Shown: piece after piece, positions 4,523-21,261 of the stretch
Layout of the letters: the number at the start of each line of letters is the position of its first letter
Numbering within the stretch: the first letter of the stretch is position 1
Assembly (NCBI RefSeq): GCF_000025505.1
Contig: NC_013849.1
Coordinates: 2,164,267 to 2,196,266 of the forward strand
Direction: 5' to 3'
Source: Ferroglobus placidus DSM 10642
GTDB lineage: Archaea; Halobacteriota; Archaeoglobi; Archaeoglobales; Archaeoglobaceae
Length of the DNA: 32,000 nt
Program-made: the position numbers and the translations under genes
The notes under the pieces: model-generated
Databases searched by the model: none
What the model saw: the letters and a program-made list of their open reading frames with translations, nothing else
What the model was told of the DNA's origin: nothing

Positions 4523-4622
4523 CGTTAAACTATCGAAACTTTATAAGTGTGCCGCAGTATATACATTAGAAAGCCAAATCGTCAGGAGAAAATAAATAAA
4601 CCTCCCCTCTTTTTTATATTTC

Positions 4623-5402: not shown

Positions 5403-5406
5403 TATC

Positions 5407-6927: not shown

Positions 6928-7135
6928 GCACTCTCGCACTGAACAGTATGGTTTGGTAACGTTTCTGATGGGATTTTGTTAATTTTTTAGATTTTAGACC
7001 ATTGCCGCAGCGTGTTCAACTATCAGTTCGGAGAGCTCGTTGATAGTGGAGTAATTCTTAAATCCCCTTTTCATGAGAACTCTTTTGCCTCCCAGTCCAG
7101 TAATGTATATTAACTCACAAGGATAAGAAAAGTTT

Positions 7136-7408: not shown

Positions 7409-7727
7409 CAAAAGTCCGATCGTTAAGTCTTACGAAATACTCGACTTTAAAAAGGGAAGGGATTTCTACTACCTTAAGATCAAAGCTATTTTAATCAACG
7501 ATACAGTTTTGCACATCAGAGAATACGTCTCACCAGATGACTCATCTTACTCATACAATTGGGTTGATGGGGACGGGAATCTCATTTGCAGATGGGACAA
7601 CGCACCACATTATAAACACATTAAAACGTTTCCGCACCATAAACACACTAAAAATGGGGTTAAAGAGTCATTCGAAACAACTCTACAAGATGTTTTAACT
7701 GTTATTGAAAAGGAAGTTACAACATAA
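7383..7727 (+). CDS. DUF6516/TumE-like putative toxin
   Basis: 114 aa with ...YYLKIKAIL.NDTVLHIREYV...YSYNW.D..GNLICRWDNAPHYKHIKTFPHHKH. I recall the WDNAPHH...FPHHKH His-rich signature as the DUF6516 family, named TumE-family toxin in NCBI. This is from memory only. Confidence 0.5.
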   Translation: MLKTLELLDKSPIVKSYEILDFKKGRDFYYLKIKAILINDTVLHIREYVSPDDSSYSYNWVDGDGNLICRWDNAPHYKHIKTFPHHKHTKNGVKESFETTLQDVLTVIEKEVTT

Positions 7728-7747
7728 CTTTACGCTCAAACAAGTCA

Positions 7748-9310: not shown

Positions 9311-9407
9311 CCATCTACACCTCCAAGCAATGTTACTAAAATGCGCGGAATTTTTAGTTTGGGAATAAGGGAAAAAGTTTTGCAAGCAACGTTTTTATAA
9401 AGTTCGT

Positions 9408-10178
9408 TTACTGCTCTTTCTTACCTCTCTTCGTCTCAGCGAAGTATTCGAGGATTTCTATCGGAATTGGAAAGACTATTGTTGTGTTTTGAGCGTTGGA
9501 GATTTCGTTCATCGTCTGGAGAATTCTCAGCATCATAGCCCCTCTGCTTTCCGAAAGTATTTCTGCCGCTTCTTTCAACTTCAAAGCAGCTTGATACTCT
9601 CCGTCCGCCCTTATAATCTTCGCCCTCCTCTCTCTTTCAGCTTCAGCCTGCATAGCCATAGCCCTCTGCATTTCCTTCGGCAGCTCGACATCCTTTATTT
9701 CAACAGCCGAAACTTTTATTCCCCACTGATCCGTGGCTTCGTCTATTATCTGCTGAAGCTTTAAATTCAGCTTTTCTCTTTCCGAAAGCAGTTCGTCAAG
9801 TTCCGCCTGACCAATAACGCTTCTCAGGGTGGTCTGGGCAATTTGGGCTGTTGCGAACTTGTAATCGTAAACTTCCGTTATCGCTTTCTCCGGATCGACA
9901 ACTCGATAGTAAACAACCGCGTTAACCCTAACAGTGACGTTATCTCTTGTAACGACTTCTTGCGGAGGTACGTCGTAAGTTACCGTTCTAAGGTCGACAA
10001 CCTGCATGCTTTCGAGAATCGGGATGACGTAAAATATTCCAGGTCCTCTCGCACCGACGAGCCTTCCGAGTCTGAAAATTACACCTCTCTCGTACTCCTT
10101 AACGATTCTGATTCCCGAAAGGAGGAACAGAATTATGACTATCGCCAGTCCCAACAGTATCGTGTCGCTTAAAGCCAT
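9408..10178 (-). CDS. SPFH/band-7 (stomatin/prohibitin-like) membrane protein
   Basis: An N-terminal TM helix is followed by [30 protein letters not shown]....PPQEV.T.DNV.V.V.AVVYYRV.DP, and a coiled-coil [18 protein letters not shown] at 10178 is preferred over the TTG at 10202 used by the ORF track. Confidence 0.85.
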
Positions 10179-10250
10179 AAAATAGAAATTTAACTTAAAC
10201 AAATAAGTTTTTCGATGGATTTATATGTAGCAGTTTTTAAAATCGCGTAG

Positions 10251-11171
10251 GTGATAAAGGAGCAGTTTAGAGAGATAAATAGGAAGTTCGTGGAGAAATA
10301 CGAAAAAATAGACGATTCGAAAGAGTTCTACGAGTTCATGGCTAAGCCAATAAGACAGAGCTTCAGAGTTAACACGCTTAAAATAGATGTTAAAAGCGTT
10401 GTGGAAAGATTATCGGAAGAGTTCGAACTCGAAAGAGTCCCTTGGTGTAAAGAGGGGTTTTTCGTTTACGGAGAGGGAATAACCAAAACTCCTGAATTCG
10501 CTCTCGGCTTGATATTCATGCAGGAAGCTTCCTCGATGATACCGCCGGTTGTTATGGATTTGAAGGAGAACCTCTTCGTTCTCGACATGGCAGCCGCTCC
10601 TGGAGCGAAAACGACGCAGATTTCGCAATACATGAACAACACCGGCTGCGTTATTGCCAATGATGTGAAGTACTCGAGGTTGAACATTCTCATTTCTAAC
10701 GTTCAGAAGTACGGATGCATAAACGTTGTTGTGACGGAAAAGGACGGAAGATACTTTGGAAGGTTCAGAGACACCTTCGATAGAGTTTTACTTGATGCTC
10801 CCTGCAGCAACGTGGGGATGATAAGGAAGAACTACAAATATTTAAAGCTCTGGAGGCAGATGGAAGTGGAAGCTTTGTCGAGGCTGCAAAAAAGTCTGAT
10901 TTTGGCAGCTTACAAAGCTTTGAAGCCGAAAGGTGTTCTTGTTTACTCCACTTGCACTCTCGATCCCGAAGAAAATGAAGAAGTAATCGACTACCTTCTC
11001 TACAATACCGACGCGAAGCTCGAAAAAATAAAGCTTCCAGTAAAGTCTACAGAGCCGATATTGGAGTTCAACGGGAAAAGGTACAGCGAAGAAGTCAAAA
11101 AGTGCCTGAGAATTCATCCTCAAGATAACGACACCGAAGGCTTCTTCGTCGCCAAGGTGGTGAAACCGTGA
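10251..11171 (+). CDS. NOL1/NOP2/Sun-family RNA cytosine-C5 methyltransferase (Trm4/RsmF-like catalytic core)
   Basis: SAM motif VLDMAAAPGAKTTQ, motif IV DRVLLDAPCSNVG and motif VI LVYSTCTL, which carry the two catalytic Cys, then NEEV. GTG start. Confidence 0.85.
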   Translation: MIKEQFREINRKFVEKYEKIDDSKEFYEFMAKPIRQSFRVNTLKIDVKSVVERLSEEFELERVPWCKEGFFVYGEGITKTPEFALGLIFMQEASSMIPPVVMDLKENLFVLDMAAAPGAKTTQISQYMNNTGCVIANDVKYSRLNILISNVQKYGCINVVVTEKDGRYFGRFRDTFDRVLLDAPCSNVGMIRKNYKYLKLWRQMEVEALSRLQKSLILAAYKALKPKGVLVYSTCTLDPEENEEVIDYLLYNTDAKLEKIKLPVKSTEPILEFNGKRYSEEVKKCLRIHPQDNDTEGFFVAKVVKP

Positions 11172-11566
11172 ACTATTTGGAAATTTTAAGGGAACTTTAC
11201 GGAGTCGAGAAGGTGAATTTCGAGCTGAAAAAGATGGGAAAGGACAGGCTCTACGCTTTTCTGAAGTGCGACAAGAAGGACGAGCTCGGGATAAAAGAGT
11301 ACCACCAAGGAGTCTACTTCGGCAAGCTCGAAAAAGATGGGATAAGGTTGAGCATAGAGGGTTGCTATTTGCTTCGAGACGAGATTAAGAAAAACCTCAT
11401 AGAAGTTTCCTACGAAGATGCGATTAAGTGGTTGAAAGGAGAAGATTTGGATATTCCTTACAAAGGATACGTCGTGCTGAAGTGGAGAAACTACTTTTTG
11501 GGTTGCGGAAAGGGGGATGGAAAGAAAATAAGGAACTACGTCCCTAAGGAGAGGAGAATAATCTAA
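11168..11566 (+). CDS. Stand-alone PUA-like RNA-binding domain of the RsmF/YebU C-terminal type
   Basis: 132 aa ending GYVVLKWRNYFLGCGKGDGKKIRNYVPKERRI, which matches the G.v.l...g..lG.GK..g..lkN.yPk..R tail of the RsmF C-terminal PUA-like domain. It overlaps the methyltransferase gene by 4 nt (GTGA). Confidence 0.55.
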   Translation: MNYLEILRELYGVEKVNFELKKMGKDRLYAFLKCDKKDELGIKEYHQGVYFGKLEKDGIRLSIEGCYLLRDEIKKNLIEVSYEDAIKWLKGEDLDIPYKGYVVLKWRNYFLGCGKGDGKKIRNYVPKERRII

Positions 11567-11602
11567 CAAAACATTATTAAATTCCAAAATCAACGCTTAA
11601 AA

Positions 11603-12115
11603 ATGGATCCGAGAGCGTTTTATAAAATAAGTTACGGACTTTACGTCGTTTCCTCCTCCTACAATGGTAGACTGAGCGGGCAAATTGCCAATACAGTTTT
11701 TCAGGTCTCCTCAGAGCCTCCGATGATTGCAGCTTGTTTGAACAAGAAAAACTTCACCCACGAAATAGTGAAGTCGAGTAAGGTTTTCGCTGTTAGCGTT
11801 TTGGAAGCTGAAACGCCACTGACGTTCATAGGAAGGTTTGGGTTCAGAAGTAGCAGGGACTTCGACAAGTTTGAAGGAGTGGATTACGAAATAGGAGTAA
11901 CTGGCGCTCCAGTCGTAATTCAGCATGCAACAGCAATTTTCGAGGCAAAGGTCGTTAAGGAGTGCGACGTTGGAACTCACACCTTGTTTATCGGTGAAGT
12001 CGTGAGGGCTGAGCTGAGAAGAGATGCCGAAGTTTTGACTTACGCCGACTACCATCGGATTAAGAAAGGAAAAACTCCGAAAACTGCTACCGTTTACTTC
12101 GATAAGCAAAGTTAG
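11603..12115 (+). CDS. Flavin reductase-like (FMN-binding split-barrel) protein
   Basis: 170 aa. YGLYVVSS.....SGQIANTV.QVSSEPP.IA.CLNK.N.THE.....K.FAVSVL and H.LFIGEVV are typical of the flavin reductase/DIM6-NTAB family. Confidence 0.8.
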   Translation: MDPRAFYKISYGLYVVSSSYNGRLSGQIANTVFQVSSEPPMIAACLNKKNFTHEIVKSSKVFAVSVLEAETPLTFIGRFGFRSSRDFDKFEGVDYEIGVTGAPVVIQHATAIFEAKVVKECDVGTHTLFIGEVVRAELRRDAEVLTYADYHRIKKGKTPKTATVYFDKQS

Positions 12116-12123
12116 TTGCTAAA

Positions 12124-12153
12124 TTGCAAAAAATGCAACATTGATGCTTTTTT
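12124..12153 (+). terminator. Possible terminator: short dyad followed by a T7 run after the flavin reductase gene
   Basis: The dyad TTGCA-AAAAA-TGCAA sits at 12124-12138. It is followed by GCTTTTTTT, with the T run ending at 12153, starting about 10 nt after the TAG stop. Oligo-T tracts are the usual archaeal termination signal. Confidence 0.3.
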
Positions 12154-12154
12154 T

Positions 12155-12764
12155 ATCACTCACTTTTTGGGCTTTCGAACAATTTTAAATTTTGGAGATA
12201 ATAATAAAAAATTAAAATTTAAACTTTTTAAATTATATCTTCTAACTCTTATGTTTTCCATTTTTAAATCTTTTATAAAAATTAAAATGACAAAAATTGA
12301 ATTGATAATTTAAATTAATTAAATATTAATGAGCTATGTAATCTGTAGCCTTATCACAAAATTTTTAGAATACAACATTTTTAGGTTTACCTAAAAATGT
12401 TGAATGTGGCGACTCGCTTGTTCCAAAAATTATGTGAATTTAGGCTGCGTCGCGAATTTACCCCCCCTTAACTGCATGAAGTGTGCAAATTTGTGAAACA
12501 ACGCTATTTAACGGTGTTAAATATTACAATAATTTTGGAATAAAGATTATTTAGCCTCAGCAATATATATTTGCTTCAAAATTAACTGCTCAAGAAATTA
12601 TTGATTTGTGAGTAGATATTTGAATATACAAAATTAAAAACTAAAATTAATTAAAATAAATTTTGAAAATTAATATATTACATTAAATAAATAATTTTAA
12701 TTAAATTACTTAGATACAACAGAACAAATGTAAATTAACCTCCAAGTTTCAAAAAGTGAGTGAT
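12155..12764. repeat. 610-bp extremely AT-rich non-coding element bounded by a perfect 15-bp inverted repeat
   Basis: ATCACTCACTTTTTG at 12155-12169 is the exact reverse complement of CAAAAAGTGAGTGAT at 12750-12764. The interior has no credible ORF. One example line, 12661-12720, has 6 G/C in 60 nt. See findings. Confidence 0.6.
12373..12402. repeat. 30-bp near-perfect palindrome
   Basis: CAACATTTTTAGGT-TT-ACCTAAAAATGTTG has 14-bp arms and a 2-nt centre. It lies inside the AT-rich gap. Confidence 0.7.
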
Positions 12765-12826
12765 GAAGAAGAGAGAAGATTTTGGGGAAAACGTATAAGA
12801 GTGAGTAAAGCAGATGTTCGGATGTT

Positions 12827-13945
12827 ATGAAAATTTCGAAAAGCGCGTATCGGAAGAGAGTTGAAAAAGTCCAAGAGCTTATGGAAAAGGAAGGGATAGA
12901 CGCTTTCCTCGTGCTTTCCCTCGAAAATTACAGGTATTTCACTGGAGATGTGAGAAAGCAACCGAGGATGGTAATTCCGTCTAACGACGAGCCTTTTTTA
13001 ATAGTTTTCGACACCGAAAAAGAGGAAGCTGAGAAAAAGACCGGTCTCGAGGCAAAAACCTATAGATCCCTCCCGGATATGATGAAGCACATCGTAGCAT
13101 TCACAAACTCCCTTGGGGACAACCCGAAGATAGCTGTTGAGATGGAGTTTTCAACGCCAGCTTTTCTCCTTGAGAGGTTCAGAAAAATGAATCCTCACGT
13201 GGAAGTTGTAGATGCGAAGCAGATAGTTGCTCCGCTGAGAAAATACAAAGACGAGTACGAGTTAGAACTCATGAAAAAAGCTGGAAAACTTGCGGATGTG
13301 GCAATGGAAAAAGTCTTGGACGTTTTGAAGCCGGGAGTTGCAGAGAGAGAAGTTGCCAACGAAGTGGAGTACTACATCAGAAAGAAGGGAGCTGAAAGGC
13401 TCGCTTTTCCTATGTTCGTTAATTCCGGAGAAAGGAGTCTCTGGCTTCACGGTTTAGCTACAGACAGAAAAATTGAGGAGGGAGATGTGGTTTTAATAGA
13501 TGTAGGTCCGGTTTACGAGGGATACTGCGCTGACATAGCGAGAACTTTCGTTGTAGGTAAAGCTACCGAAGAGCAAAAAAGAGCTCATTCAGCTTACGTG
13601 GAATTACAGGAGAGAGTCGTGGAAATTATCGAAAAAGAAAAGAACGAAATATCGATTCTTGAGATAGAGAGAAGAAACGAGGAGTTCATGAAAAGCAAGG
13701 GCTTTGGAAACTTTTACGTAAAAGGATTTCTCCACGGGATCGGACTGAATTTCGAAGAGACTCCGTTTCCAACGATATTTCCCGAAGATTTGAGGGAGGT
13801 TGTCGAGGAAAGAATGACTTTGTCAGTTGGACATTCTGTTCTCTCAATCAAAGGCGTTGGGGGATTTAGAGTTGAGGATACCATTTACGTTGGAGAAAAA
13901 ATCGAGTTCCTTACGACTTTCACCAGAGAACTTCTGGAGGTGTGA
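12827..13945 (+). CDS. M24-family Xaa-Pro aminopeptidase/dipeptidase
   Basis: 372 aa. A creatinase-like N-domain is followed by a pita-bread domain carrying the metal-ligand context: VVLIDVGPVYEGYCADIARTF, HGIGLNFEE, GFRVEDTI. Confidence 0.85.
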   Translation: MKISKSAYRKRVEKVQELMEKEGIDAFLVLSLENYRYFTGDVRKQPRMVIPSNDEPFLIVFDTEKEEAEKKTGLEAKTYRSLPDMMKHIVAFTNSLGDNPKIAVEMEFSTPAFLLERFRKMNPHVEVVDAKQIVAPLRKYKDEYELELMKKAGKLADVAMEKVLDVLKPGVAEREVANEVEYYIRKKGAERLAFPMFVNSGERSLWLHGLATDRKIEEGDVVLIDVGPVYEGYCADIARTFVVGKATEEQKRAHSAYVELQERVVEIIEKEKNEISILEIERRNEEFMKSKGFGNFYVKGFLHGIGLNFEETPFPTIFPEDLREVVEERMTLSVGHSVLSIKGVGGFRVEDTIYVGEKIEFLTTFTRELLEV

Positions 13946-13948
13946 TTT

Positions 13949-14359
13949 ATGGCTGAAGCTAAAGGAGAAATTGTCGTTTCCGCAGACGTTGAGAGAGTTA
14001 GGAAAGTCCTTTTAGACATGAAAACGGTTGGTAGTTGCTTTAAGTTCGTTAAGAATGCTTCTGAAAAAGGAGAAAAGTGGTTTGTCAGAGCTCCTATGTC
14101 GATGATAACGCAAACAAAGGAGTTAGAAGTGAAAGTTATCAGAGAAGAGCCAGTTGAATGGGAAGCAAAGGGAAAACATCTGTTATGGAAGGGAAGATTT
14201 GAGGTAGAAGAGGCAAACGGGGGAACGAGGATAAAGGTTACGCTCTCCGTTGAGGGGCTGGGAAGCATGGCAGCGATAATTAATCCGATGGCAAGCGTCC
14301 AGATAGAGGGGCAATTAAGGTACTTCCTAAACGAGTTGAAGAAGAAAATTGAGGGTTAG
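13949..14359 (+). CDS. SRPBCC-fold (CoxG/polyketide-cyclase-like) protein
   Basis: 136 aa. The pattern of alternating beta segments and a long C-terminal helix, plus V.A....V...L.D......C, resembles CoxG-like SRPBCC proteins. This is a weak call made by eye. Confidence 0.55.
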   Translation: MAEAKGEIVVSADVERVRKVLLDMKTVGSCFKFVKNASEKGEKWFVRAPMSMITQTKELEVKVIREEPVEWEAKGKHLLWKGRFEVEEANGGTRIKVTLSVEGLGSMAAIINPMASVQIEGQLRYFLNELKKKIEG

Positions 14360-15393
14360 CGTTTCGCTATAAGCTCTTTCACCGCCGTACAACCTCCGCA
14401 GGTGAAGCATCCCGCTTCGGCTTTATTGATTTTGACATGCTTAACGTAACTTTCAACGAGCTCGTAAATCTTTACCACTTCATCTAAATTGACTGGCTGT
14501 TCGTTAGAATAAGGCGGAGGTCTGTAAGGAGCTAGGAAAGGAGTAATTCCTATTTCAACCATCCTTTCAACGTTTTCAGCAGTTACGAATTTATCCTCTC
14601 CGAAACCAAGCACAATCCAGCTGTTAACCTTCCATTTCCCGAAAATATCCACGGCGTTCTCCCAAGCTTTGAAGTACTCTTCAAGCTTCGGCTTTCCTGG
14701 AACAACATTGCTTCTAATTTTTTCGTCCAGAACTTCAGCGTGAATACCTATCGTGTCTGCCCCACTTTCGTAAAGCATTTCAAGAAAATCTCTATCGACG
14801 ACGTCGACCTGAACGTGAATTGGTATGTCCACTTTTTCCTTTACAGCCTTAACAACTTCAGAGATTTTTACAGCCCCTTTGTCTTTCCCCGGCATAATTC
14901 CGGAAGTTATTGTGAGGTGTCTGCTGTTATCCTCTTCGTAAGCCATTTTCGCAGCCTCGGCTATCATTTCTGGAGTTTTTTCCACGATCGAGTTTTCCAG
15001 CCCAATCTCTATAGAGCAGAATTTGCATCTCTTCTTTTTCCACAGAACGCATCTTCTCGACACAGCAGTTACGAGAGCGTTAATTCCGTCGAGAGCAACT
15101 ATTTTCCCGGCTTCAACGCCAAAACTCGTCGGCTTCGAATAATACTCAGCCTTAGGTAGCTTAACCTCGCCAACGACTTCGTCGTTCTTGAAAAGGTAAT
15201 ATTTCTCGTCGATTTTCTCAATTCTGTAAGGGGAGTTTTCAACGAACTTTTGCTTGTTCGGAGCAGAAACCACGCTACCTTCTACCTCAAACCCAACTCC
15301 TCCAGTTGGACCTCCTCCACTCTTTCTGTAGCTTCTAACGTTTCCTCTAACTCCTTTCACTATTATTTCGAGTTTCGTTCTCCAGTCAAGCAT
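14356..15393 (-). CDS. Radical SAM-like enzyme with a non-canonical CX7CX2C cluster motif, unknown subfamily
   Basis: 345 aa. The only N-proximal Cys triad is C-VLWKKKR-C-KF-C. It is followed by TIM-barrel-like segments (HLTITSG, IHVQVD, ADTIGIH, SWIVLGFGE). There is a roughly 110-aa N-terminal extension (SGGGPTGG) and a C-terminal CFTCGGC. Its start overlaps the upstream gene by 8 nt. Confidence 0.7.
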   Translation of the reverse strand: MLDWRTKLEIIVKGVRGNVRSYRKSGGGPTGGVGFEVEGSVVSAPNKQKFVENSPYRIEKIDEKYYLFKNDEVVGEVKLPKAEYYSKPTSFGVEAGKIVALDGINALVTAVSRRCVLWKKKRCKFCSIEIGLENSIVEKTPEMIAEAAKMAYEEDNSRHLTITSGIMPGKDKGAVKISEVVKAVKEKVDIPIHVQVDVVDRDFLEMLYESGADTIGIHAEVLDEKIRSNVVPGKPKLEEYFKAWENAVDIFGKWKVNSWIVLGFGEDKFVTAENVERMVEIGITPFLAPYRPPPYSNEQPVNLDEVVKIYELVESYVKHVKINKAEAGCFTCGGCTAVKELIAKR

Positions 15394-16327
15394 AAACCCT
15401 CACAGCCTCATCCGGAGAGTCGCTGTAAGCCACAGCTGCCAGAGCACCTATTACACCTCTCCTCCCGGTAATTTCTATCAACTCAACCCCGTTTCTCTCC
15501 GCAACATTTTCAGCCTCCTCGATTTCCACCATCTCCCTCTTTACCTTCTCCCCGAATTTTAACAGCTCTTCGTCGATCAAAATTTTTTTGTAAACCGCCA
15601 TAGCCGTTTCGTCGCTGAAAGTGCTCTTTCTAAGCTCTTTTTCAAACGCTTTCACGAGCTTTTCCGAATCTTGCGTTGCGAAAGTTACTGAAATGGATAC
15701 GCAGTTCGTAGTTTTGTATGGATTTTTCGTGTACAGCTGAGTGATCGTGTGAAGGAGGTAGTATCCAAGTCCTTCTTTTTCAAGTTTGTAGGCGATTTCG
15801 TTAACGAGTGCCCAAGTTGCCCCTCCTTCCTTGCTGTCCGTATCATCGACGCCTATCACAACCTTCTCCATTGCCGGAAGAACGAGTTTAGCCTTTCCAA
15901 GTTTCTCTCCTCCTCCCTCTTCGAGAATTTCAATTCCCAACACGTTTTCAGCCATGCCCCTGCAAACTGTCGCAGCTATGCCTCCTCCGGCAAGACCGGC
16001 GTAAGTTACCTCGACTTTATCACCAACAACTTCGACTTTTTCAACACCAGCTCCGGCAATCCCCGGCACGAGCCTCAAAGTCGTTTCTCCCTTTTTCAAA
16101 ACGAAAATGTTCCTCGCTCCTTCTCTCCTCGCTTTTAGAACGAGGTTGCTCACTCTCGGGTAGTGGTAAATCTCCCAAGCAGCTCCGCCTATGCATTTTC
16201 CTCTCGCATGAAACTCGTGGAGCTCAACGTGAAAGCCGTCGTGCATGGCGATAATTCTCTCGTAAGGAGAAATCCACTCAACACCACCATATTTTTTTAA
16301 TACCTCCTCTCTACTCATCAAAACCAT
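15386..16327 (-). CDS. Two-domain protein: unknown Gly-rich N-domain plus a TiaS TCKD-like (Thr18-Cyt34 kinase domain) C-domain
   Basis: The C-terminal half, VIGVDDTDSKEGGATWALV...LYTKNPYKTTNCVSISV, is colinear with the TiaS N-terminus (GIDDTDS..GMCTTY...PYKTRGNGAVS, from memory). No OB-fold or Zn-ribbon part of TiaS is present. The N-terminal roughly 150 aa (HARGKCIGGAAWEIYHYPR, GIAGAG, AGLAGGGIAA) are unassigned. Confidence 0.6.
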   Translation of the reverse strand: MVLMSREEVLKKYGGVEWISPYERIIAMHDGFHVELHEFHARGKCIGGAAWEIYHYPRVSNLVLKARREGARNIFVLKKGETTLRLVPGIAGAGVEKVEVVGDKVEVTYAGLAGGGIAATVCRGMAENVLGIEILEEGGGEKLGKAKLVLPAMEKVVIGVDDTDSKEGGATWALVNEIAYKLEKEGLGYYLLHTITQLYTKNPYKTTNCVSISVTFATQDSEKLVKAFEKELRKSTFSDETAMAVYKKILIDEELLKFGEKVKREMVEIEEAENVAERNGVELIEITGRRGVIGALAAVAYSDSPDEAVRVYA

Positions 16328-16360
16328 AAGTTGTGAAAATTCGAGAACGATTATAAATGT

Positions 16361-17329
16361 TTGGAGGTGCTGAACGTGGAGGCAATACTCGACATAGAGG
16401 GAGAAAAGAGCGAGGAGAGAGAATTTGACGTAGCAATAATCGGAGCTGGACCAGCAGGACTGACCGCTGCAATATATGCTACAAGGTACGGTCTGAAGAC
16501 GGTTGTCTTCGAAACTGTGGAAGCTTCTCAGCTTTCGTTAGCTCCGAAAATAGAGAATTACCCGGGATTTGAAGGATCCGGATTTGAATTGCTTGAAAGA
16601 ATCAAAAGGCAGGCTTTAAAGTTTGGAGCCGTGCACAAGTTCGAGCACGTGGAGAGGCTTAGAAAAGACGGTGACTACTTCGTCGTAAAAACCGACATGG
16701 CTGAGTATAAAGCGAAAGCTTTGATAATTGCTACCGGAGGAAAGCACAAAGAACTCGGAGTTCCTGGAGAAAAAGAATTCGTCGGGAAGGGTGTTAGCTA
16801 CTGCGCCACTTGCGACGGAAACTTCTTTAGAGGGAAAAGAGTTGCCGTCGTCGGTGGAGGAAATACGGCTGTGACCGATGCGATTTACCTCCACGAAATT
16901 GGTTGCGATGTCGTTTTGATCCACAGAAGAGACGAGTTGAGGGCTGAAAAAGCTTTACAAGAGGAACTTTTCAAAAGGAACATCCCAGTAATATGGGACA
17001 CGGTCGTTCTCAGAATAGAGGGTAACGAGAAGGTCGAAAGGCTCGTCCTCCTCAACAGAAAAACGAATGAAGAGAGCGTTTTAGAAGTGGACGGAGTTTT
17101 CATAGCAGTAGGAATCGTGCCAGCGACAGATATAGTCATGGATCTCGGAGTAGAAAGGGATGCTGCCGGTTACATCAAAGTTGACAAAAGGCAGAGAACA
17201 AACGTTCCCGGTGTTTTTGCCGCTGGCGACTGTTGCGACAATCCTCTAAAACAAGTTGTCACAGCATGTGCCGACGGAGCTATAGCGGCGAACTCGGCTT
17301 TTGAGTACATCAAAATGATGCAACTTTAA
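16361..17329 (+). CDS. trxB: Thioredoxin-disulfide reductase
   Basis: FAD motif VAIIGAGPAGLTAA, redox-active CATCDG, second dinucleotide motif VAVVGGGNTAV, and C-terminal GVFAAGD. TTG start at 16361, with GTG at 16376 as an alternative. Confidence 0.85.
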   Translation: MEVLNVEAILDIEGEKSEEREFDVAIIGAGPAGLTAAIYATRYGLKTVVFETVEASQLSLAPKIENYPGFEGSGFELLERIKRQALKFGAVHKFEHVERLRKDGDYFVVKTDMAEYKAKALIIATGGKHKELGVPGEKEFVGKGVSYCATCDGNFFRGKRVAVVGGGNTAVTDAIYLHEIGCDVVLIHRRDELRAEKALQEELFKRNIPVIWDTVVLRIEGNEKVERLVLLNRKTNEESVLEVDGVFIAVGIVPATDIVMDLGVERDAAGYIKVDKRQRTNVPGVFAAGDCCDNPLKQVVTACADGAIAANSAFEYIKMMQL

Positions 17330-17379: not shown

Positions 17380-17439
17380 GCCGCTGTGATGATTACTCCC
17401 GCTGCTGACACGTGATGATTATTGCGCTATCTGAGCGGC
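17380..17439 (+). ncRNA. Box C/D sRNA (2'-O-methylation guide)
   Basis: GCCGC-T-GTGATGA(C, 17386-17392)-TTACTCCCGCTG-CTGA(D', 17405-17408)-CAC-GTGATGA(C', 17412-17418)-TTATTGCGCTAT-CTGA(D, 17431-17434)-GCGGC. There are two 12-nt guides, a 3-nt D'/C' spacer and a 5-bp terminal stem GCCGC/GCGGC. Confidence 0.85.
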
Positions 17440-17621
17440 TACCATTCTATGCTTATCGCGTTGTTCGGACAGGCTCTCGTGCACGCGCCGCACTCCATGC
17501 AGAGGTCTTCGTTTACCTTAGCCACACCGCCGTCGAGATATATGGCTCCTCCCTTCTCGCTGCAAACTTCCACGCAGGCTCCGCATCCATCGCACTTTGA
17601 AGCGTCAATTACGGCAGGCAT
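17439..17621 (-). CDS. 2x[4Fe-4S] ferredoxin
   Basis: 60 aa with CDGCGACVEVC and CMECGACTRACP. Confidence 0.9.
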   Translation of the reverse strand: MPAVIDASKCDGCGACVEVCSEKGGAIYLDGGVAKVNEDLCMECGACTRACPNNAISIEW

Positions 17622-17725
17622 AATAAAAGCTTACACAACTTGAAATTAAAATTCGAGGGCTTTTTCGGTTTTTACTCAAACGCTCACACCCGATAACCTT
17701 TAAATCTTATCTCACGAATATCCTC

Positions 17726-17783
17726 TGTCGATGATGACGAGCGCGGGTGCTGAAAAGTGATGAAGAGCTGACGGTCTGAGACG
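17726..17783 (+). ncRNA. Box C/D sRNA (2'-O-methylation guide)
   Basis: TGTCG-ATGATGA(C, 17731-17737)-CGAGCGCGGGTG-CTGA(D', 17750-17753)-AAA-GTGATGA(C', 17757-17763)-AGAGCTGACGGT-CTGA(D, 17776-17779)-GACG. There are two 12-nt guides, a 3-nt spacer and a short GTC/GAC terminal pairing. Confidence 0.8.
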
Positions 17784-17829
17784 TTACAATAAAAAATTCC
17801 CTGAGTGAAAAACTAAAAAAGAGTTAAAA

Positions 17830-19014
17830 TCATGGTCTGTAGCTTTTCGGCATTCCGAGAACGTGCTCTCCTATGTAGGCGAGCGCCATCTGCTGCGTTA
17901 CGGGAGCGAGCCTTATCAGGTTTATCTCTCTCCACCACCTTTCGACATCGTATTCTTTAGTGTATCCGTAGCCTCCGAAGGTTTGCATAGCCCAGTAAAC
18001 AGCTCTAATTCCTGCCTCTACTGCCACAACCTTAGCCATGTTGGCAGCGTCACCAACTTCTCTGTAAGAAGCGTTGTTGTCGAACAGCCAAGCAGCTTTC
18101 AGGTTCATCAGTTTTGCACACTCCAGCGTGGCGTAAGCCTCAGCCAAGGGGAACTGCAATCCCTGGTAGCTTCCGATCGGATCCTGAAAGACCTTCCTCT
18201 GCTTGGAATACTCCACAGCCTTGCTAACAGCCAATCTCGCTATGCCTATTGCCGCAGCTGCGAAACTCATCCTCTCAGGATTCAGCGTGTCGAGAATTAG
18301 GTACCACCCCTCGTCTTGCGGAGGAATTAAAGCATTTTCCGGCAATCTCAAATTATTGAAGCTGACTTCACAGGTTTTTGAATAGTTTATTCCGTGTTTT
18401 GGTATGGGGTTTATCTTTACCGCTGGATTTGGCAAGTCAGCTAAGAACAAACTTATTCCGTAAGTTCTCTTCGGAGCCTCCTCTCTTGGAGTCGTTCTTG
18501 CGATTATAAGCATTCCCTTCGCCCTGTCAGCTCCGCTTATGAATATCTTGTTGCCGTTTATCACCCACTCGTCTCCGTCTTTAACTGCCCTCGTCCTTAT
18601 GTTGAGGGTGTTCGTTCCAGCGTCGGGCTCAGTCAGAGCCATGCAGAACTCAAGCTTGCCTTTAGCGATCTTCGGAAGGTACTTTTCCTTTTGCTCTTCA
18701 GTTCCGTGCCTCACAATCGTCAAAGCCCCAAAGACCTCGGTAAGAACGAGATACCACACTCCCCCCATTCCGCAGCCGTTGGCGGCTAACTCCTCCATCG
18801 CTATAAGCAGTTCTGTCATTCCGTACCCGGAGCCCCCGTACTCTTCGGGGATTACTATTCCTACGAAACCGGCATCGCTTATAGCCTTCCAGAACTCCTC
18901 GGCAAACTCTCCCTTCTCGTCCTTTTCCCTCCAGTATTCGGGAGGAAAATCTTTAGCGATATCTCTTGCAGCCTCTGCTATCATCTTCTGATCTTCCGTC
19001 AGTTTAAAGTCCAA
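17830..19014 (-). CDS. Acyl-CoA dehydrogenase
   Basis: About 395 aa from the TTG at 19014, which sits 6 nt behind GGAGGTG. The remaining N-terminal extension of the tracked ORF lies in the 26-nt intergenic gap and overlaps the upstream DUF35 gene, which makes it implausible. ACAD-typical segments: LTEDQKMI.E..R.FA, ALTEP.AGT, G.KIFIS.A, QR..F...I...Q.LQF.LAE, A.MAK....E, QTFGGYGY..EY.VERWWRE. Confidence 0.88.
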   Translation of the reverse strand: MDFKLTEDQKMIAEAARDIAKDFPPEYWREKDEKGEFAEEFWKAISDAGFVGIVIPEEYGGSGYGMTELLIAMEELAANGCGMGGVWYLVLTEVFGALTIVRHGTEEQKEKYLPKIAKGKLEFCMALTEPDAGTNTLNIRTRAVKDGDEWVINGNKIFISGADRAKGMLIIARTTPREEAPKRTYGISLFLADLPNPAVKINPIPKHGINYSKTCEVSFNNLRLPENALIPPQDEGWYLILDTLNPERMSFAAAAIGIARLAVSKAVEYSKQRKVFQDPIGSYQGLQFPLAEAYATLECAKLMNLKAAWLFDNNASYREVGDAANMAKVVAVEAGIRAVYWAMQTFGGYGYTKEYDVERWWREINLIRLAPVTQQMALAYIGEHVLGMPKSYRP

Positions 19015-19040
19015 ATCAATCACCTCCAAAAAATAGAAAA

Positions 19041-19511
19041 TTAGGCTGGTTTGAAGTAAAGAATGTCCGTAATCTTTCCTTCTCTCTCTTCCTTCGGCTT
19101 TAGAACCGGTTTGACTTTCATTCCAACGCAAACGTCTTCGGGATTCACTTCTCCGAGCAGGTGAATTATTCTTCCGTTTGTTCCGTCCATCTCTATGAGA
19201 GCGTAGATTTCCGGTTTTTCGAGCTTCTCTCCGTTTTTATCGTAGTACGCCACAGCAAAAGCCGCAACGCATCCCTCTCCGCTCACTTCCACGTATTCCG
19301 TCTCGCTAAAGTCGAACTCGCAGTAGATCCTCGGAGGGAAGAATACGTGCCCGCATTTTTTACATTTGGCGGCTGTAAACTTCCCCTCATCCCTCAGCTT
19401 TTTGAAAAAGTAATCTCCAGCTTCTCCGCTCGTGTAAACCCAGTAAAGCTCTATCTTACCTTCCACGTGCTTCAGCTCTCGAGGATCGATAATTTTTTCG
19501 GTAAAAACCAT
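19041..19511 (-). CDS. DUF35 OB-fold/Zn-ribbon protein (degenerate ribbon)
   Basis: 156 aa. F..L...GKF.AAKCKKCGHVFFPPRIYC is followed by an OB-fold segment ending GMKVKPVLKP....GKITDILYFKP. Only 3 of the 4 ribbon Cys are present (CKKC...C-EFD). Confidence 0.8.
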   Translation of the reverse strand: MVFTEKIIDPRELKHVEGKIELYWVYTSGEAGDYFFKKLRDEGKFTAAKCKKCGHVFFPPRIYCEFDFSETEYVEVSGEGCVAAFAVAYYDKNGEKLEKPEIYALIEMDGTNGRIIHLLGEVNPEDVCVGMKVKPVLKPKEEREGKITDILYFKPA

Positions 19512-19516
19512 TCACA

Positions 19517-20053
19517 TCACCCCTCTATCGGCTTCCAGTACTTTATATCCGTTATCGCTCCCTCCCTCTCCTCTTCGGGCTTCCAGACCGCCTTTACTTT
19601 CATTCCGATGTAAACCTTGTCCGGCTCGACCTCGCCGAGTTTATGTAGAATTCCCATGTGTGGAGAGGCTCCGTCTATAGCTATAACTGCCACAATTTCC
19701 GGCTCTTCTAAAGGTCTCGCGTCTGGATCGATGTAGGAGATCGAGAAGGTCTCAACAACTCCGGTGTCTTTAAGCTCGACCCACTCGTTTATAGGTTTGA
19801 AACAAAGCTCGCAGAATTCCCTTGGAGGAACCATAACCCTTCCGCACTTGTTGCACTTTACTCCGAGAATCTTTCCCTCCTTCAACCCCTTGAGGAACTT
19901 GCTGATAGCCTGTCCGGCTGTAAAGGAATAGCGAATGTCAGGGTGATCTTCCACGTACGTTATCGTCTTCTTCTCGAAATCCTCCGCTTCGAGCTCTCTC
20001 CCCTTAACGTAAGGAGGACAGCTAATATCCTTCTTACCTACCGCCAACTCCAT
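19517..20053 (-). CDS. DUF35 OB-fold/Zn-ribbon protein
   Basis: About 178 aa from the ATG at 20053, which forms a TGATG overlap with the upstream stop. The full ribbon is CNKCGRVMVPPREFCELC. The OB-fold tail is GMKVKAVWKPEEEREGAITDIKYWKP. Confidence 0.8.
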   Translation of the reverse strand: MELAVGKKDISCPPYVKGRELEAEDFEKKTITYVEDHPDIRYSFTAGQAISKFLKGLKEGKILGVKCNKCGRVMVPPREFCELCFKPINEWVELKDTGVVETFSISYIDPDARPLEEPEIVAVIAIDGASPHMGILHKLGEVEPDKVYIGMKVKAVWKPEEEREGAITDIKYWKPIEG

Positions 20054-21261
20054 CACCTCTTGTTTGATAAAACCATAACGGTTCCAACCTGCATCAAATC
20101 TCCCCAAGCCTGAGCGACTCCCGTTGTGACTTCCTTCGGAACCTGCCTCTTTCCAGCTCTGTAGGCGAGCTGCCAGTAGATTTCCGCTACTTTAACTCCC
20201 ATTGTCGCAGCTATCGGGTTTCCTACTCCAAGCAGTCCTCCAGATGGGCAAACAGGAAGATCACCGTCTCTTGCCGTGACTCCCTCTCTCGTTAAGATGG
20301 GTGCCTCACCCTTCTTAGCCAAGCCTAACCCTTCCATGTGGTGCAACTCCTTGTAATCGAAGGGATCGTAGGGCTCAGCCACGTCGATTTCCTTCCTCGG
20401 ATCGGTTATGTGAGCCATCTTGTAAGCCATTTTCGCAGCCTCAGCCACGTACCTCGGGAAGTAGAGGTCTCTGTTCGTCCACCACGTTGTGTCCAAACTC
20501 CAGCCAACTCCTGCCACCCAAACCGGCTCGTCCGTGAGTTGTCTCGCTATGTGGGGAGCGACCATTATCAAAGCAGACGCTCCGTCGCTCGGCGGAGAAA
20601 CGTCGAGTCTTCTCACCGGCAAAGCCATCGGCTCGCTGTTGAGTACGTCTTCAACGGTTATCTTGGCTGCAAGCTGTGCAGCCGGATGGTCTAAAGCGTT
20701 TGCCTTGTTCTTTACGGAAACGAGAGCTATATCTTCATGCTTTATGTTGTGGACGTGCATGTACCTCCTCATTTCCAGAGCGAATATCCAGATGAGGTTC
20801 GGTTTTAGCGGACGATCGAGAATTGGATCCCAGATGTACTTGAAAGCCGACTGCGGATGCGGATGGGAAGAGCTCATCTTCTCTTCGGTAACAACCAAGC
20901 AAACGTCGGCAAGACCGCTTGCAACGTGCCAGTAGCCGGCGATAGGAGCGAATACTCCAGTGCCTCCTCCTACGAAAACTCTCATGTATGGCTTGTTGCT
21001 TCCTCCAGCTCCGTCGAGCAGGTATTCTCCCTTCATGTGCACACCGTCAAAGGCATCTGGAGCTGAACCCATTACAACCATGTCTATGTCGCTGATGTCC
21101 AAGCCAGCTTCTTCCAAAGCCTGCTTTACAGCATAGTAACTAAGCTCTTTTCCAGTCTCGTTAAGCCTCCTTCTGAATATCGTCATTCCCGCTCCAACTA
21201 TCGCGACATCCTGCTTTTTGTGGTACTTCAAACCCTTAACCTTCTCAACTATCATGACCAT
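20053..21261 (-). CDS. Thiolase-fold (SCP-x/lipid-transfer-protein-like) protein 2, apparently lacking canonical catalytic residues
   Basis: About 402 aa from the ATG at 21261 (TGATG overlap). The thiolase-like layout is VAIVGAGMT...VMGSAP...VASGLADVCLVVTEEKM...SGGLLGVGNPIAATMG. The position of the nucleophilic Cys (ACASG) reads GGGTG, and the GHP His reads GNP. Confidence 0.8.
   Translation of the reverse strand: MVMIVEKVKGLKYHKKQDVAIVGAGMTIFRRRLNETGKELSYYAVKQALEEAGLDISDIDMVVMGSAPDAFDGVHMKGEYLLDGAGGSNKPYMRVFVGGGTGVFAPIAGYWHVASGLADVCLVVTEEKMSSSHPHPQSAFKYIWDPILDRPLKPNLIWIFALEMRRYMHVHNIKHEDIALVSVKNKANALDHPAAQLAAKITVEDVLNSEPMALPVRRLDVSPPSDGASALIMVAPHIARQLTDEPVWVAGVGWSLDTTWWTNRDLYFPRYVAEAAKMAYKMAHITDPRKEIDVAEPYDPFDYKELHHMEGLGLAKKGEAPILTREGVTARDGDLPVCPSGGLLGVGNPIAATMGVKVAEIYWQLAYRAGKRQVPKEVTTGVAQAWGDLMQVGTVMVLSNKR

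Follow-up and report, generated by a model that had tools for sequence, protein, structure and literature searches.

Methanogenesis marker protein 11 of Ferroglobus placidus carries a TiaS-type kinase domain and is coupled to a variant radical SAM protein

The window analyzed here, a stretch of 32,000 nucleotides of the Ferroglobus placidus DSM 10642 genome, contains two overlapping genes for the methanogenesis marker protein 11 (Mmp11) and for a radical SAM protein (rSAM). Each family can be recognized from profiles, and the two genes recur side by side in archaea and bacteria. The pairing appears to be undescribed until now, as no mention of Mmp11 coupling to a radical SAM gene was found in the searchable literature. 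With a probability of about 40%, we propose that the pair combines ATP-dependent activation of a carbonyl or carboxyl group with radical chemistry, probably an insertion of sulfur, and that it acts on a small precursor of a cofactor, which may be similar to coenzyme B (CoB). The initial annotation of this DNA had proposed an uncharacterised module of coupled kinase and radical enzymes in a two-step modification. The two-step reading is supported. "Uncharacterised" remains correct insofar as no function has been assigned by experiment to either family (the models TIGR03280 and TIGR04043 both have the status "hypothetical equivalog"), but the families themselves are recognizable, as Mmp11/TIGR03280 and MSMEG_0568-like/"variant_rSAM".

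Organization of the Gene Pair

Both open reading frames lie where they had first been placed (Table 1), and the described overlap of stop and start codons is seen in the sequence. At this junction (...TTT ATG CTT GA...), the rSAM ATG (15393-15391) is located inside the final Mmp11 codons, and Shine-Dalgarno-like motifs, GAGGG (15397-15401) and GAGG (15406-15409), are found just 5' of the overlap. Five further, distinct loci of Archaeoglobi have the same -8 junction, and three bacterial loci have a -4 junction.

The pair is flanked by a divergent trxB gene (TIGR01292, 390 bits), a conserved divergent neighbor in Ferroglobus and Geoglobus, and by a convergent SRPBCC gene (Polyketide_cyc2), with 3' ends overlapping by 4 nt. 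A TATA-like element is situated in a 33-nt gap, ~27 nt 5' of the Mmp11 ATG. Given the usual archaeal promoter geometry, it is probably a divergent promoter common to Mmp11 and trxB, and the Mmp11 mRNA is probably leaderless. Both neighbors had been named initially, and were said to give no clue to the substrate. This stands for the 32-kb window, which contains no substrate-pointing genes, but not for other genomes, where the neighborhoods do give substrate hints.

Table 1. Coordinates of the features of the gene pair in the window.
Feature	Position	Strand	Basis
Mmp11 (methanogenesis marker protein 11) gene, first of pair	15386..16327	-	ORF, 313 aa
Mmp11 N-terminal family-specific domain, Gly-rich, residues 1-150	15878..16327	-	pLDDT >90 in model
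Mmp11 TiaS-type kinase domain (TCKD), residues 155-313	15389..15865	-	Pfam PF22641, TiaS PDB matches, Foldseek
Mmp11 catalytic-motif region, D161-D162-T163-D164...T171	15815..15847	-	residue-by-residue HMMER alignment to 3au7/3amt
8-nt overlap ATGCTTGA, Mmp11 stop / rSAM start	15386..15393	-	sequence
MSMEG_0568-like variant radical SAM gene, second of pair	14356..15393	-	ORF, 345 aa
rSAM N-terminal beta-rich extension, residues 1-110	15064..15393	-	alignments A1/A3/A4; model secondary structure
C115-x7-C123-x2-C126, presumed radical-SAM [4Fe-4S] site	15016..15051	-	invariant in alignments
C329-x2-C332-x2-C335, candidate auxiliary Fe-S cluster site	14389..14409	-	invariant in A1, A3, A4
Near-palindromic TTATAAA/TTTATAA TATA-like element	16351..16357	.	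sequence only

Analysis of Mmp11

The 313-aa product scores 364.7 bits against TIGR03280 (cutoff 255.8), with residues 21-311 covering profile positions 1-292 of 292. On this profile evidence, it is a full-length member of the family with a two-domain architecture. Its identity to the Ferroglobus sp. proteins that bear the name "methanogenesis marker protein 11" is 92-93%, and the Geoglobus and Ferroglobus copies already carry the Mmp11 annotation. The family is also called m17 (Borrel/Adam) or DUF1743 (Pfam DUF1743/TiaS_TCKD), and its function was termed "indeterminate" (Adam et al. 2022). The original phyletic definition, occurrence in methanogens only, does not hold, as the host is non-methanogenic and the closest relatives are those of Ferroglobus and Geoglobus; further members occur in Bathyarchaeia, Undinarchaeales and Geothermincolia bacteria. 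According to JGI, the family is an "imperfect" marker.

The C-terminal half had been described as similar to the TCKD domain of TiaS, and three kinds of comparison agree with this. Pfam TiaS_TCKD (PF22641) matches with E=5.9e-23, and PDB sequences of TiaS (3amt/3au7/4rvz) and 3u02 match with E-values of 2e-6 to 3e-9 (profile E down to 6e-14). In Foldseek, the Mmp11 model (pLDDT 95) matches 4rvz/3amt/3amu with E-values of ~2e-9 to 7e-9, over ~160 residues and with an rmsd of 2.1-2.7 Å. The HMMER alignment places D161, D162, D164 and T171 on TiaS Asp8, Asp9, Asp11 and the autophosphorylated Thr18. These four residues and T163 are invariant in the 26 homologues of alignment A2, which has 53 invariant columns spread over the N-domain and the TCKD. 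Mmp11 and TiaS have the fold, DDTD, the Thr18 equivalent and two further motifs, PYKT and GxIGALAA, in common. Mmp11 probably works like TiaS: a carbonyl would be O-phosphorylated with ATP and then attacked by an amine.

In contrast to TiaS, Mmp11 has no ferredoxin-like, OB or Zn-ribbon tRNA-binding domain, as had been noted, and possesses a 150-aa N-domain of its own instead. The protein was rejected as a tRNA(Ile2) 2-agmatinylcytidine synthetase, since it reaches only 55.9 bits against NF040849 (cutoff 600) and matches TiaS residues 2-152 of 422 only, the point at which Mmp11 itself stops. No relative of the N-domain (residues 1-150) was detected in Pfam, PDB sequences or Foldseek, and its occurrence is confined to Mmp11-length proteins (57 clusters among 1.84 billion representatives). 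Its invariant polar residues are H40, R42, W51, E52, H55, R68, N73 and R123 (A2).

As TiaS, a tRNA modifier, is the sole TCKD enzyme that has been characterized, an RNA nucleoside might be the substrate: Mmp11 would phosphorylate a pyrimidine carbonyl in tRNA or rRNA, as TiaS does, and rSAM would complete a hypermodification. Several radical SAM enzymes modify RNA, RlmN is among the weaker fold matches of rSAM, and in one locus (L006), RtcA, Tpt1 and TrmO-like genes surround the pair. We nevertheless judge RNA modification unlikely. Every RNA-binding module of TiaS is missing from Mmp11, the recurrent neighbors of the pair are metabolic (Mmp4, Aks, TPP enzyme, Tfr, ComDE, transporter), the nearest relatives of rSAM act on small molecules or acyl groups, and the homologous Nit1C rSAM is located in a small-molecule cluster.

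Analysis of the Radical SAM Protein

The 345-aa protein passes the cutoffs of PF04055 (44.6 bits, cutoff 29.5) and of the variant_rSAM model NF045502 (145.4 bits, cutoff 125). Against TIGR04043 it scores 231.3 bits, below the cutoff of 303.7, which is passed by the Mmp11-adjacent orthologue of Methanofastidiosia (336.8 bits). These profiles identify it as a divergent member of the MSMEG_0568-like (Nit1C-cluster)/"variant_rSAM" family. It is homologous over its full length (27-38% identity) to the MSMEG_0568 rSAM (TIGR04043) of the Nit1C nitrilase/nitrogen-starvation cluster, with which it shares the RKGGxGPxG N-terminal domain, the CX7CX2C motif and the C-terminal CX2CX2C. The bacterial protein, too, is partnered with an ATP-dependent enzyme, there an AIR-synthase-like protein related to methanogenesis marker 2 (Mmp2), whereas the partner in the window is Mmp11 and not a GNAT, an AIRS-like protein or a nitrilase.

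The protein contains six cysteines in two triads, all invariant in alignments A1, A3 and A4 (9, 20 and 27 sequences) and none of them in the N-terminal domain. The canonical CX3CX2C is absent, and CX7CX2C stands in its place in the 27 sequences. This motif is a catalogued radical SAM variant (RadicalSAM.org Megacluster-2-5). Its C123 and C126 align with the second and third cysteines of the PylB CX3CX2C and with the start of the Pfam profile, and it is the presumed site of [4Fe-4S]-dependent reductive SAM cleavage. The initial annotation had called this triad the only one of its type; its presence and conservation are borne out, but not its uniqueness, as C329-x2-C332-x2-C335, the CFTCGGC of the initial annotation, is equally invariant. 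The N-terminal extension, for which profile searches returned no solved relative, carries an invariant R23-K24-x-G26-x-G28-P29-x-G31 (15301-15327; A1, A3 and A4).

Foldseek searches with the AF2 model (pLDDT 94.8) gave 192 PDB matches at E<=0.001, and the 50 matches listed were all radical SAM enzymes, in keeping with a partial TIM-barrel fold. The best among these were LipA, HydE, LIAS, PylB, ThiH and BioB, the core matching LipA (5exj) with E=5e-11 and LIAS with E=7e-9. Fold and profile taken together rank lipoyl synthase as the nearest solved relative, followed by HydE, PylB, ThiH and BioB. LipA/LIAS and BioB are two-cluster enzymes, as is proposed for rSAM, but the identity is 14-19%, and rSAM differs in its CX7CX2C RS motif and extra N-terminal domain. 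The auxiliary-cluster motifs of LipA, an N-terminal CX4CX5C and a C-terminal RSSY, are absent from it, as are the [2Fe-2S] ligands of BioB. An identity as lipoyl or biotin synthase was rejected on the scores for LipS2 (38.8 bits, cutoff 270), LipA (23.5, cutoff 310) and BioB (20.5, cutoff 225).

Conservation of the Gene Pair

In 20 of 28 informative Mmp11 loci, rSAM directly adjoins Mmp11 on the same strand, in both gene orders and with junctions of -8 to +34 nt. The pair was found in Geoglobus, Bathyarchaeia, Ca. Mnemosynella-type genomes, a Geothermincolia bacterium, Methanofastidiosia and Ca. Methanoglobus; the adjacency first seen in Ferroglobus is kept across Archaeoglobi and in bacteria. 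The two proteins diverge in a correlated manner (r=0.83, Mantel p~2e-4). This correlation, and the recurrence in 20 other loci, indicate a pairing beyond chance.

The locus sample was drawn from outside the classical methanogen orders, on which the definition of the marker was based. Among the named matches, there was no rSAM orthologue from these orders, which suggests that rSAM is not required everywhere Mmp11 occurs. Mmp11 stands without rSAM in one Actinomycetota locus, and rSAM without Mmp11 in ANME-1 and others.

In the literature, m17 in non-methanogens is termed a "remnant" of ancestral methanogenesis, and the Ferroglobus/Geoglobus synteny could be by descent. Accordingly, the adjacency might be no more than inherited synteny of decaying or independent proteins with no current joint function. 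This is very improbable: both ORFs are intact, the catalytic and cluster residues are all invariant over two domains of life, the adjacency outlasts a gene-order inversion and a transfer to bacteria, and the overlapping start and stop codons are kept.

Genomic Neighborhoods

The genes around Mmp11 in other genomes speak for a small-molecule and thiol context, and the trxB of Ferroglobus and Geoglobus can be counted with them. The phosphotransacylase-like Mmp4/MtxX adjoins in eight loci. In Methanofastidiosia, an SBF transporter gene lies upstream, and TfrB and TfrA (CoM/CoB fumarate reductase) adjoin. The Mmp11 of Methanomethylicia and Methanofastidiosum is found beside HacA/HacB, an AksA-type synthase, an ALS-like TPP enzyme and a GMC-like flavoprotein; the HacB-like protein of this context has a YLRS loop, similar to the YLRT loop reportedly present in methanogen homoaconitase. 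In Geoglobus, cysteate-synthase-like, ComDE-like and SsuA-like genes come after the pair. Several of the neighbor links are each seen in one lineage and could reflect synteny by descent. No sampled locus combines the rSAM context with the Aks context, so that the hint to CoB and rSAM may belong to different functions within the family. The markers m15 (MtxX), m16 (AIR-synthase-like) and m17 (DUF1743) have a common distribution in Archaeoglobaceae and in the non-methanogenic Mnemosynellales, which are predicted users of CoM/CoB-dependent Tfr and Hdr (PMC9635834).

In Methanoglobus-type loci, ycaO-tfuA directly adjoins the pair. YcaO-TfuA thioamidation offers a functional analogy only, as it also couples ATP-dependent carbonyl O-phosphorylation to sulfur chemistry; it differs in having no sequence or fold kinship with the pair and in acting on peptide backbones. 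This linkage is among the observations that favor a protein or peptide as substrate. Mmp11 would then phosphorylate a backbone or side-chain carbonyl, as YcaO does, or a Thr/Ser, and rSAM would modify that protein too; the target could be MCR in methanogens and a different protein in other organisms. Several methanogenesis markers modify MCR (Mmp10, YcaO-TfuA), TiaS autophosphorylates the threonine equivalent to the invariant T171, LipA, the best structural match, works on a protein-bound acyl group, and in L006 rSAM is preceded by a 49-aa ORF. Such a substrate is nonetheless improbable, as the pair occurs in the MCR-less Ferroglobus, Geoglobus and Geothermincolia, neither the window nor most loci contain a conserved small ORF or candidate substrate protein, and no RiPP-recognition or SPASM domain was detected in the Pfam/NCBI model searches.

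In Ca. Methanoglobus, hypF-E-C-D is found a short way upstream of the pair, and Adam et al. mention hyp genes in the vicinity of m16 in M. maripaludis. In a bacterial Nit1C cluster (L053), a genuine MSMEG_0568 rSAM accompanies an AIR-synthase-like protein that scores 306 bits against methanogenesis marker 2. These observations, together with HydE among the best fold matches, would fit nitrile, cyanide or metallocofactor-ligand chemistry, in which an amide is dehydrated or activated (HypE- or QueC-like) and a HydE-like rSAM builds the ligand or a C-N/C-S unit; the Nit1C cluster encodes a nitrilase and an Mmp2-related protein of the HypE/PurM superfamily. We rate this chemistry as quite unlikely. 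The hyp linkage is restricted to a single lineage, the window rSAM stays below the TIGR04043 cutoff, and GNAT, the sll0787-type AIR-synthase-like protein, nitrilase and flavin oxidoreductase are encoded in neither the window nor any Mmp11 locus.

Proposed Function

A role of the pair in a small-molecule pathway is probable. As co-translated enzymes within the "methanogenesis marker" network of the AIR-synthase-like Mmp2, Mmp4/MtxX and Mmp11, the two proteins would share one small-molecule substrate, most likely the precursor of a cofactor. By homology, the family-specific N-domain of Mmp11 would hold this substrate while the TCKD, in which DDTD and T171 are intact, transfers phosphate from ATP to a carbonyl or carboxyl oxygen. 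The carbon would thereby be primed for amine attack, giving an amide or amidine. Alternatively, the kinase domain may phosphorylate a hydroxyl. In a second step, suggested by the fold and the cysteine pattern, rSAM would cleave SAM at the CX7CX2C [4Fe-4S] cluster and abstract a hydrogen from an unactivated carbon. With a second cluster at the C-terminal CX2CX2C, this carbon would be functionalized, sulfur insertion as by LipA/BioB being the most probable single outcome; taken by itself, sulfur insertion by rSAM is a tentative assignment, possible rather than likely.

The likeliest product class would be a thiol-bearing acyl-amino-acid coenzyme akin to CoB, which is 7-mercaptoheptanoyl-threonine phosphate. 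It would serve enzymes of the heterodisulfide-reductase/thiol:fumarate-reductase type in organisms that lost MCR. That the product is actually CoB-like is rather doubtful. We know of no assigned genes for the late CoB steps, an ATP-dependent amide bond to threonine and then phosphorylation; these would match TiaS-like chemistry, which counts for a CoB-like product. Counting against it, radical thiolation of a C7 fatty-acyl precursor has, to our knowledge, no precedent. It is an unlikely but specific proposal that Mmp11, Mmp4/MtxX and Mmp2 supply the coupling of the C7 acid to threonine and the phosphorylation, while the coupled rSAM installs the thiol by a LipA-like alternative route, which would then be placed in Ferroglobus, Geoglobus, Mnemosynellales, some Bathyarchaeia and Geothermincolia bacteria.

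Conclusions

Mmp11, one of the methanogenesis marker proteins, has intact TiaS-kinase catalytic residues. Its coupling to a radical SAM protein with two Cys triads (candidate clusters) is tight and widespread, and links to Mmp4, Aks-type, CoM-type and Tfr genes recur. The Nit1C cluster of bacteria unites homologues of this same rSAM and of Mmp2. A vague "remnant marker" thereby becomes a concrete, testable enzyme set. Should the thiol-cofactor reading fail, the pair would still join ATP-dependent to radical chemistry in an uncharacterised way. If it is true, a gap in methanogen cofactor biosynthesis would be filled, and MCR-less archaea and bacteria would make a CoB-like thiol for Hdr/Tfr-type enzymes.

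Organization of the gene pair and its surroundings

The genes for methanogenesis marker protein 11 (Mmp11) and its radical SAM partner (rSAM) are two minus-strand ORFs that overlap by 8 nt, as described in the initial annotation. The rSAM ATG lies within the final Mmp11 codons (ATGCTTGA) and is preceded, at distances of 3 and 12 nt, by GAGG(G) Shine-Dalgarno-like motifs. The rSAM stop codon overlaps that of a convergent SRPBCC gene. On the other side, only 33 nt separate Mmp11 from the divergent trxB, a neighbor that is conserved in Ferroglobus and Geoglobus. This gap contains one near-palindromic TTATAAA/TTTATAA element, ~27 nt from the Mmp11 ATG, a spacing that would be compatible with a leaderless archaeal Mmp11 mRNA. 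The TTG listed as the trxB start (16361) is just 4 nt past this shared TATA-like element, and an in-frame GVG at 16376, ~22 nt from the TATA center, is a more plausible leaderless start. The nearest homologues are found in Ferroglobus sp. MAGs (92-93% identity for Mmp11, 84% for rSAM), followed by Geoglobus, which places the host among the Archaeoglobi as Ferroglobus-like. No Rfam families were found at 12-18 kb of the window.

Coordinates of features in the window and in other collected loci
Feature	Sequence	Position (nt)	Strand	Type
Mmp11 gene, 313 aa	Window	15386-16327	minus	ORF
rSAM gene, 345 aa	Window	14356-15393	minus	ORF
Shared TATA-like element and trxB start	Window	16351-16378
Third copy of inverted-repeat core	Window	4484-4501
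HsdM-like N6 DNA methylase, 303 aa	Window	8220-9131
RsmB/F-type RNA methyltransferase	Window	10251-11171
PUA domain	Window	11168-11566		ORF
AT-rich stretch	Window	12116-12826
21-nt inverted repeat	Window	12149-12169 / 12750-12770
Hairpin	Window	12370-12405
Beta-oxidation-type cluster	Window	17439-22403	minus
Coenzyme-M-type genes, Geoglobus	L003 (also L013, L014)	10693-13840
49-aa ORF, Mnemosynella-type	L006	4811-4960		ORF
AIR-synthase-like protein, Nit1C	L053	12279-13244
Region with conserved 344-aa protein, Ca. Methanoglobus-type	L056 (also L010/L011)	1041-10882

Elsewhere in the window, an ORF-poor, extremely AT-rich stretch of ~700 nt is bounded by an inverted repeat with 90% complementarity and includes a near-perfect hairpin; a third copy of the repeat core has 3 mismatches (0.06 chance matches expected). 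The stretch has no Rfam or tRNA match; a MITE-like element is one possibility, an origin-like or regulatory region another. The RsmB/F-type methyltransferase has its PUA domain in a separate ORF with a 4-nt overlap, the result of a natural split or of a frameshift. The HsdM-like methylase covers only positions 2-196 of the 311 in the N6_Mtase profile and is possibly a truncated remnant of type I restriction-modification. Besides a 60-aa 2x[4Fe-4S] ferredoxin and an acyl-CoA dehydrogenase, the 17-22 kb cluster encodes two zinc-ribbon-OB proteins of the DUF35/ChsH2 type and two thiolase-like proteins of the SCP-x type; it represents beta-oxidation-type metabolism, typical of Archaeoglobi.

Mmp11 carries a TiaS-type kinase domain

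The 313-aa protein is, judged by its sequence, Mmp11: its match to TIGR03280 runs from end to end (364.7 bits; cutoff 255.8). This model is of the type 'hypothetical equivalog', in which the family is set by distribution and not by function. Residues 155-313 match Pfam TiaS_TCKD (E=5.9e-23), and the PDB sequence matches of this C-terminal half are TiaS and a P. furiosus TiaS fragment. By Foldseek, the Mmp11 model (pLDDT 95) superimposes on TiaS over ~160 residues at 2.1-2.7 Å (E~2e-9). This half, initially annotated as TiaS-like, is thus a TiaS-type kinase domain. TiaS Asp8, Asp9, Asp11 and Thr18 correspond in the residue-level alignment to D161, D162, D164 and T171, all four invariant in 26 Mmp11 homologues. 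In the 2011 work of Terasaka et al. and Osawa et al., those Asp residues are reportedly catalytic and the Thr autophosphorylated, and TiaS is said to phosphorylate cytidine on its C2 carbonyl oxygen ahead of the attack by agmatine.

In contrast to TiaS, Mmp11 has no tRNA-binding domains, as the initial annotation had recognized; TiaS residues 2-152 alone are matched, and the score against the TiaS model is 55.9 bits for a 600-bit cutoff. RNA modification, the TiaS-like role, is an improbable function for the pair.

The N-terminal domain, first described as unassigned, indeed has no Pfam, PDB-sequence or fold relative. When 1.84 billion representatives were searched exhaustively, it turned up in only 57 clusters, consisting of Mmp11-length proteins or fragments. 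Its 150 residues are conserved at least as well as the kinase domain in the 26 homologues, with H40, R42, W51, E52, H55, R68, N73 and R123 invariant. That the pair is a non-functional remnant is very improbable.

All Mmp11 variants tested exceed the TIGR03280 cutoff (291-365 bits), indicating one family with alternative partners. Methanofastidiosia loci appear to hold two types. The first (L002, L021 and L055; 52% identity to the window Mmp11) lies beside rSAM, and in L002 and L021 Mmp4 also adjoins it. The second (L040-L046) is divergent (43-45%), lies beside Aks-type genes, and has HPRGMATASW instead of HARGxCxGGAAW.

In the Borrel/Adam nomenclature, m15 is MtxX, m16 an AIR-synthase-like protein and m17 DUF1743; m17 is 'predicted to function as an ATPase', its exact function being 'indeterminate' (PMC9635834). 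These three markers are retained together in non-methanogenic Archaeoglobi, where each forms one monophyletic Archaeoglobaceae cluster, and m15 and m17 were transferred to bacteria (PMC9635834). Genomic context gave those authors no function for m15-m17; they predicted a CoM/CoB-dependent thiol:fumarate reductase (Tfr) and Hdr in the same non-methanogens (PMC9635834). Presumably, m16 is Mmp2. Our literature search found no functional study of Mmp11/DUF1743 or MSMEG_0568, no assignment of the late coenzyme B (CoB) biosynthesis steps and no paper connecting Mmp11 to a radical SAM enzyme; Mmp11 goes unmentioned in a 2026 paper on the structure of MtxX.

The radical SAM partner

The 345-aa protein exceeds the thresholds of Pfam Radical_SAM and NCBIfam 'variant_rSAM' (145 bits vs 125) and stays under the TIGR04043 cutoff (231 vs 303.7); these scores place it as a divergent MSMEG_0568-like radical SAM enzyme. 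The pair had been called an uncharacterized module, which holds for its function, although both proteins fall into named families.

The six cysteines of rSAM, C115-x7-C123-x2-C126 and C329-x2-C332-x2-C335, are invariant in three alignments (9, 20 and 27 archaeal and bacterial homologues). When aligned, C123 and C126 take the places of the canonical motif's second and third Cys, so CX7CX2C is presumably the SAM-cluster site, its first spacer being longer. The initial annotation had taken it for the only Cys triad; the motif stands, but the C-terminal triad is just as invariant and is a strong candidate, on sequence grounds, for an auxiliary Fe-S cluster site. Novelty of CX7CX2C was considered and rejected, as it is a catalogued variant (RadicalSAM.org Megacluster-2-5, also PoyB/C).

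The N-terminal domain (~110 residues, beta-rich) carries an invariant RKGGxGPxG motif and has no relative in the PDB by sequence or fold. The best structural match of the rSAM model (pLDDT 95) is lipoyl synthase 5exj (E=5e-11), followed by HydE, human LIAS, PylB, ThiH and BioB, and LIAS also ranked first in the family profile search (E=7e-9). That the pair modifies a protein is doubtful.

Conservation of the pairing

Mmp11 was sampled in 42 metagenomic and 10 genome loci, outside the classical methanogens Methanococcales, Methanobacteriales and Methanosarcinales; for distant representatives, cluster look-ups led to no groups other than Methanofastidiosum, Methanosuratincola/Verstraetearchaeota, Undinarchaeales and Mnemosynella. 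Not counting the window and one duplicate, 20 loci have an rSAM orthologue immediately next to Mmp11 and co-oriented with it; these orthologues are 26-51% identical to the window rSAM and, on complete contigs, align over most of its length. The named hosts are Geoglobus acetivorans, Bathyarchaeia, a Ca. Mnemosynella-type archaeon, Methanofastidiosia, Ca. Methanoglobus and, among bacteria, a Geothermincolia bacterium. The adjacency noted in the window is shared by archaea and some bacteria. The order is mostly Mmp11->rSAM, reversed in three loci (L006, L018, L025). Measured junctions are -8 nt in Archaeoglobi, -4 nt in bacteria and between +3 and +34 nt elsewhere. In the Mnemosynella-type L006, a 49-aa ORF without family match overlaps the rSAM start by 4 nt; no counterpart was seen in the window.

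The rSAM family profile matched only 106 proteins at E<=1e-10 (8000 word-sharing candidates from 5.8 billion clusters), which makes chance adjacency negligible. Over 14 pairs, Mmp11 and rSAM identities are correlated (r=0.83, Mantel p~2e-4), which shows that the two are inherited together but need not mean that they are in physical contact.

The coupling has exceptions. The rSAM gene is missing in 8 loci with adequate flanks (Ca. Methanomethylicia/Methanosuratincola, Methanofastidiosum, one Actinomycetota bacterium and one further locus), and 22 loci are too short to judge. Conversely, rSAM relatives without Mmp11 occur beside GNAT, alone, beside a HisA/F-like gene (ANME-1) and in the bacterial Nit1C cluster. 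The Nit1C sll0787-family AIR-synthase-like protein scores 306 bits against TIGR03267 (methanogenesis marker 2; E=3.5e-91), so Nit1C pairs homologues of rSAM and of another marker. Nitrile or metallocofactor-ligand chemistry is, for the pair itself, a rather remote prospect. The AIR-synthase-like gene near rSAM in ANME-1 was rejected as an Mmp2 relative; it is an ordinary PurM (358 bits).

Functional hints from other neighborhoods

The neighbors had been said to give no substrate clue. This holds for the window, in which a scan revealed no Mmp4, Mmp2-like, Aks, ComDE, cysteate synthase, TfrB, GNAT or HisA/F-like genes, and none of the neighbors suggestive of function elsewhere; it does not hold for other loci. 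Eight loci, some of them from Bathyarchaeia and Methanofastidiosia, have Mmp4/MtxX (TIGR03270, phosphotransacylase-like) next to Mmp11; in Methanofastidiosia, an SBF-family transporter is found upstream of Mmp4. In Methanofastidiosia, the pair also abuts TfrB (over cutoff) and TfrA of the CoM/CoB-dependent fumarate reductase. In Ca. Methanoglobus-type loci it lies between hypF-E-C-D and a convergent tfuA-ycaO; a conserved 344-aa protein without Pfam match is found on the hyp side.

In Geoglobus, the pair is followed by cysteate-synthase-like, fused ComDE-like and SsuA-like genes, indicating CoM-type chemistry. These coenzyme-M-type genes of a non-methanogen are located ~0.7 kb 3' of the pair: the cysteate-synthase-like protein is under cutoff (277 bits), the alpha part of the fused sulfopyruvate-decarboxylase ComDE-like protein is over cutoff, and the SsuA-like protein is of the sulfonate-binding type.

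In Methanomethylicia (L028, L031, L037, L047) and Methanofastidiosum (L042-L046, L051), Mmp11 lies, in two different gene orders, among genes for a homoaconitase of the HacA/HacB type, an AksA-type synthase, a GMC-like flavoprotein of 393 aa and a TPP enzyme resembling ALS. The specificity loop of methanogen homoaconitase is YLRT, and the HacB-like protein carries the similar YLRS. By sequence similarity, the Hac and AksA-type neighbors are predicted CoB 2-oxoacid elongation enzymes. The ALS-like enzyme, under every ALS cutoff, is a candidate 2-oxosuberate decarboxylase for CoB biosynthesis.

Possible function of the pair

We tentatively favor, at a probability of about 0.4, a two-step pathway unit acting on a small, cofactor-type molecule. 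At the expense of ATP, Mmp11 would O-phosphorylate a carbonyl or carboxyl, leading to amide formation, with Mmp4 possibly as acyl-transfer partner; alternatively, it may phosphorylate a hydroxyl. The rSAM enzyme would abstract hydrogen and then, most probably, insert sulfur via its second cluster. The recurring thiol/sulfur context (TrxB, Tfr, YcaO-TfuA, CoM-type and Aks genes) points to a thiol coenzyme. White's biochemical work is said to have found the late CoB steps ATP-dependent, which would match TiaS-like chemistry by analogy. The Aks and rSAM contexts, however, coincide in no sampled Mmp11 locus, which weakens this possibility, and a CoB-like product is unlikely.

The initial reading of a coupled TiaS-like and radical SAM module is supported with three refinements: the families are named yet uncharacterized, CX7CX2C was already known, and a second Cys triad exists. 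New are the wide Mmp11-rSAM coupling, its links to Mmp4 and thiol-cofactor genes, and the Nit1C parallel, in which the match of the AIR-synthase-like protein to marker 2 ties Nit1C to the methanogenesis-marker network.
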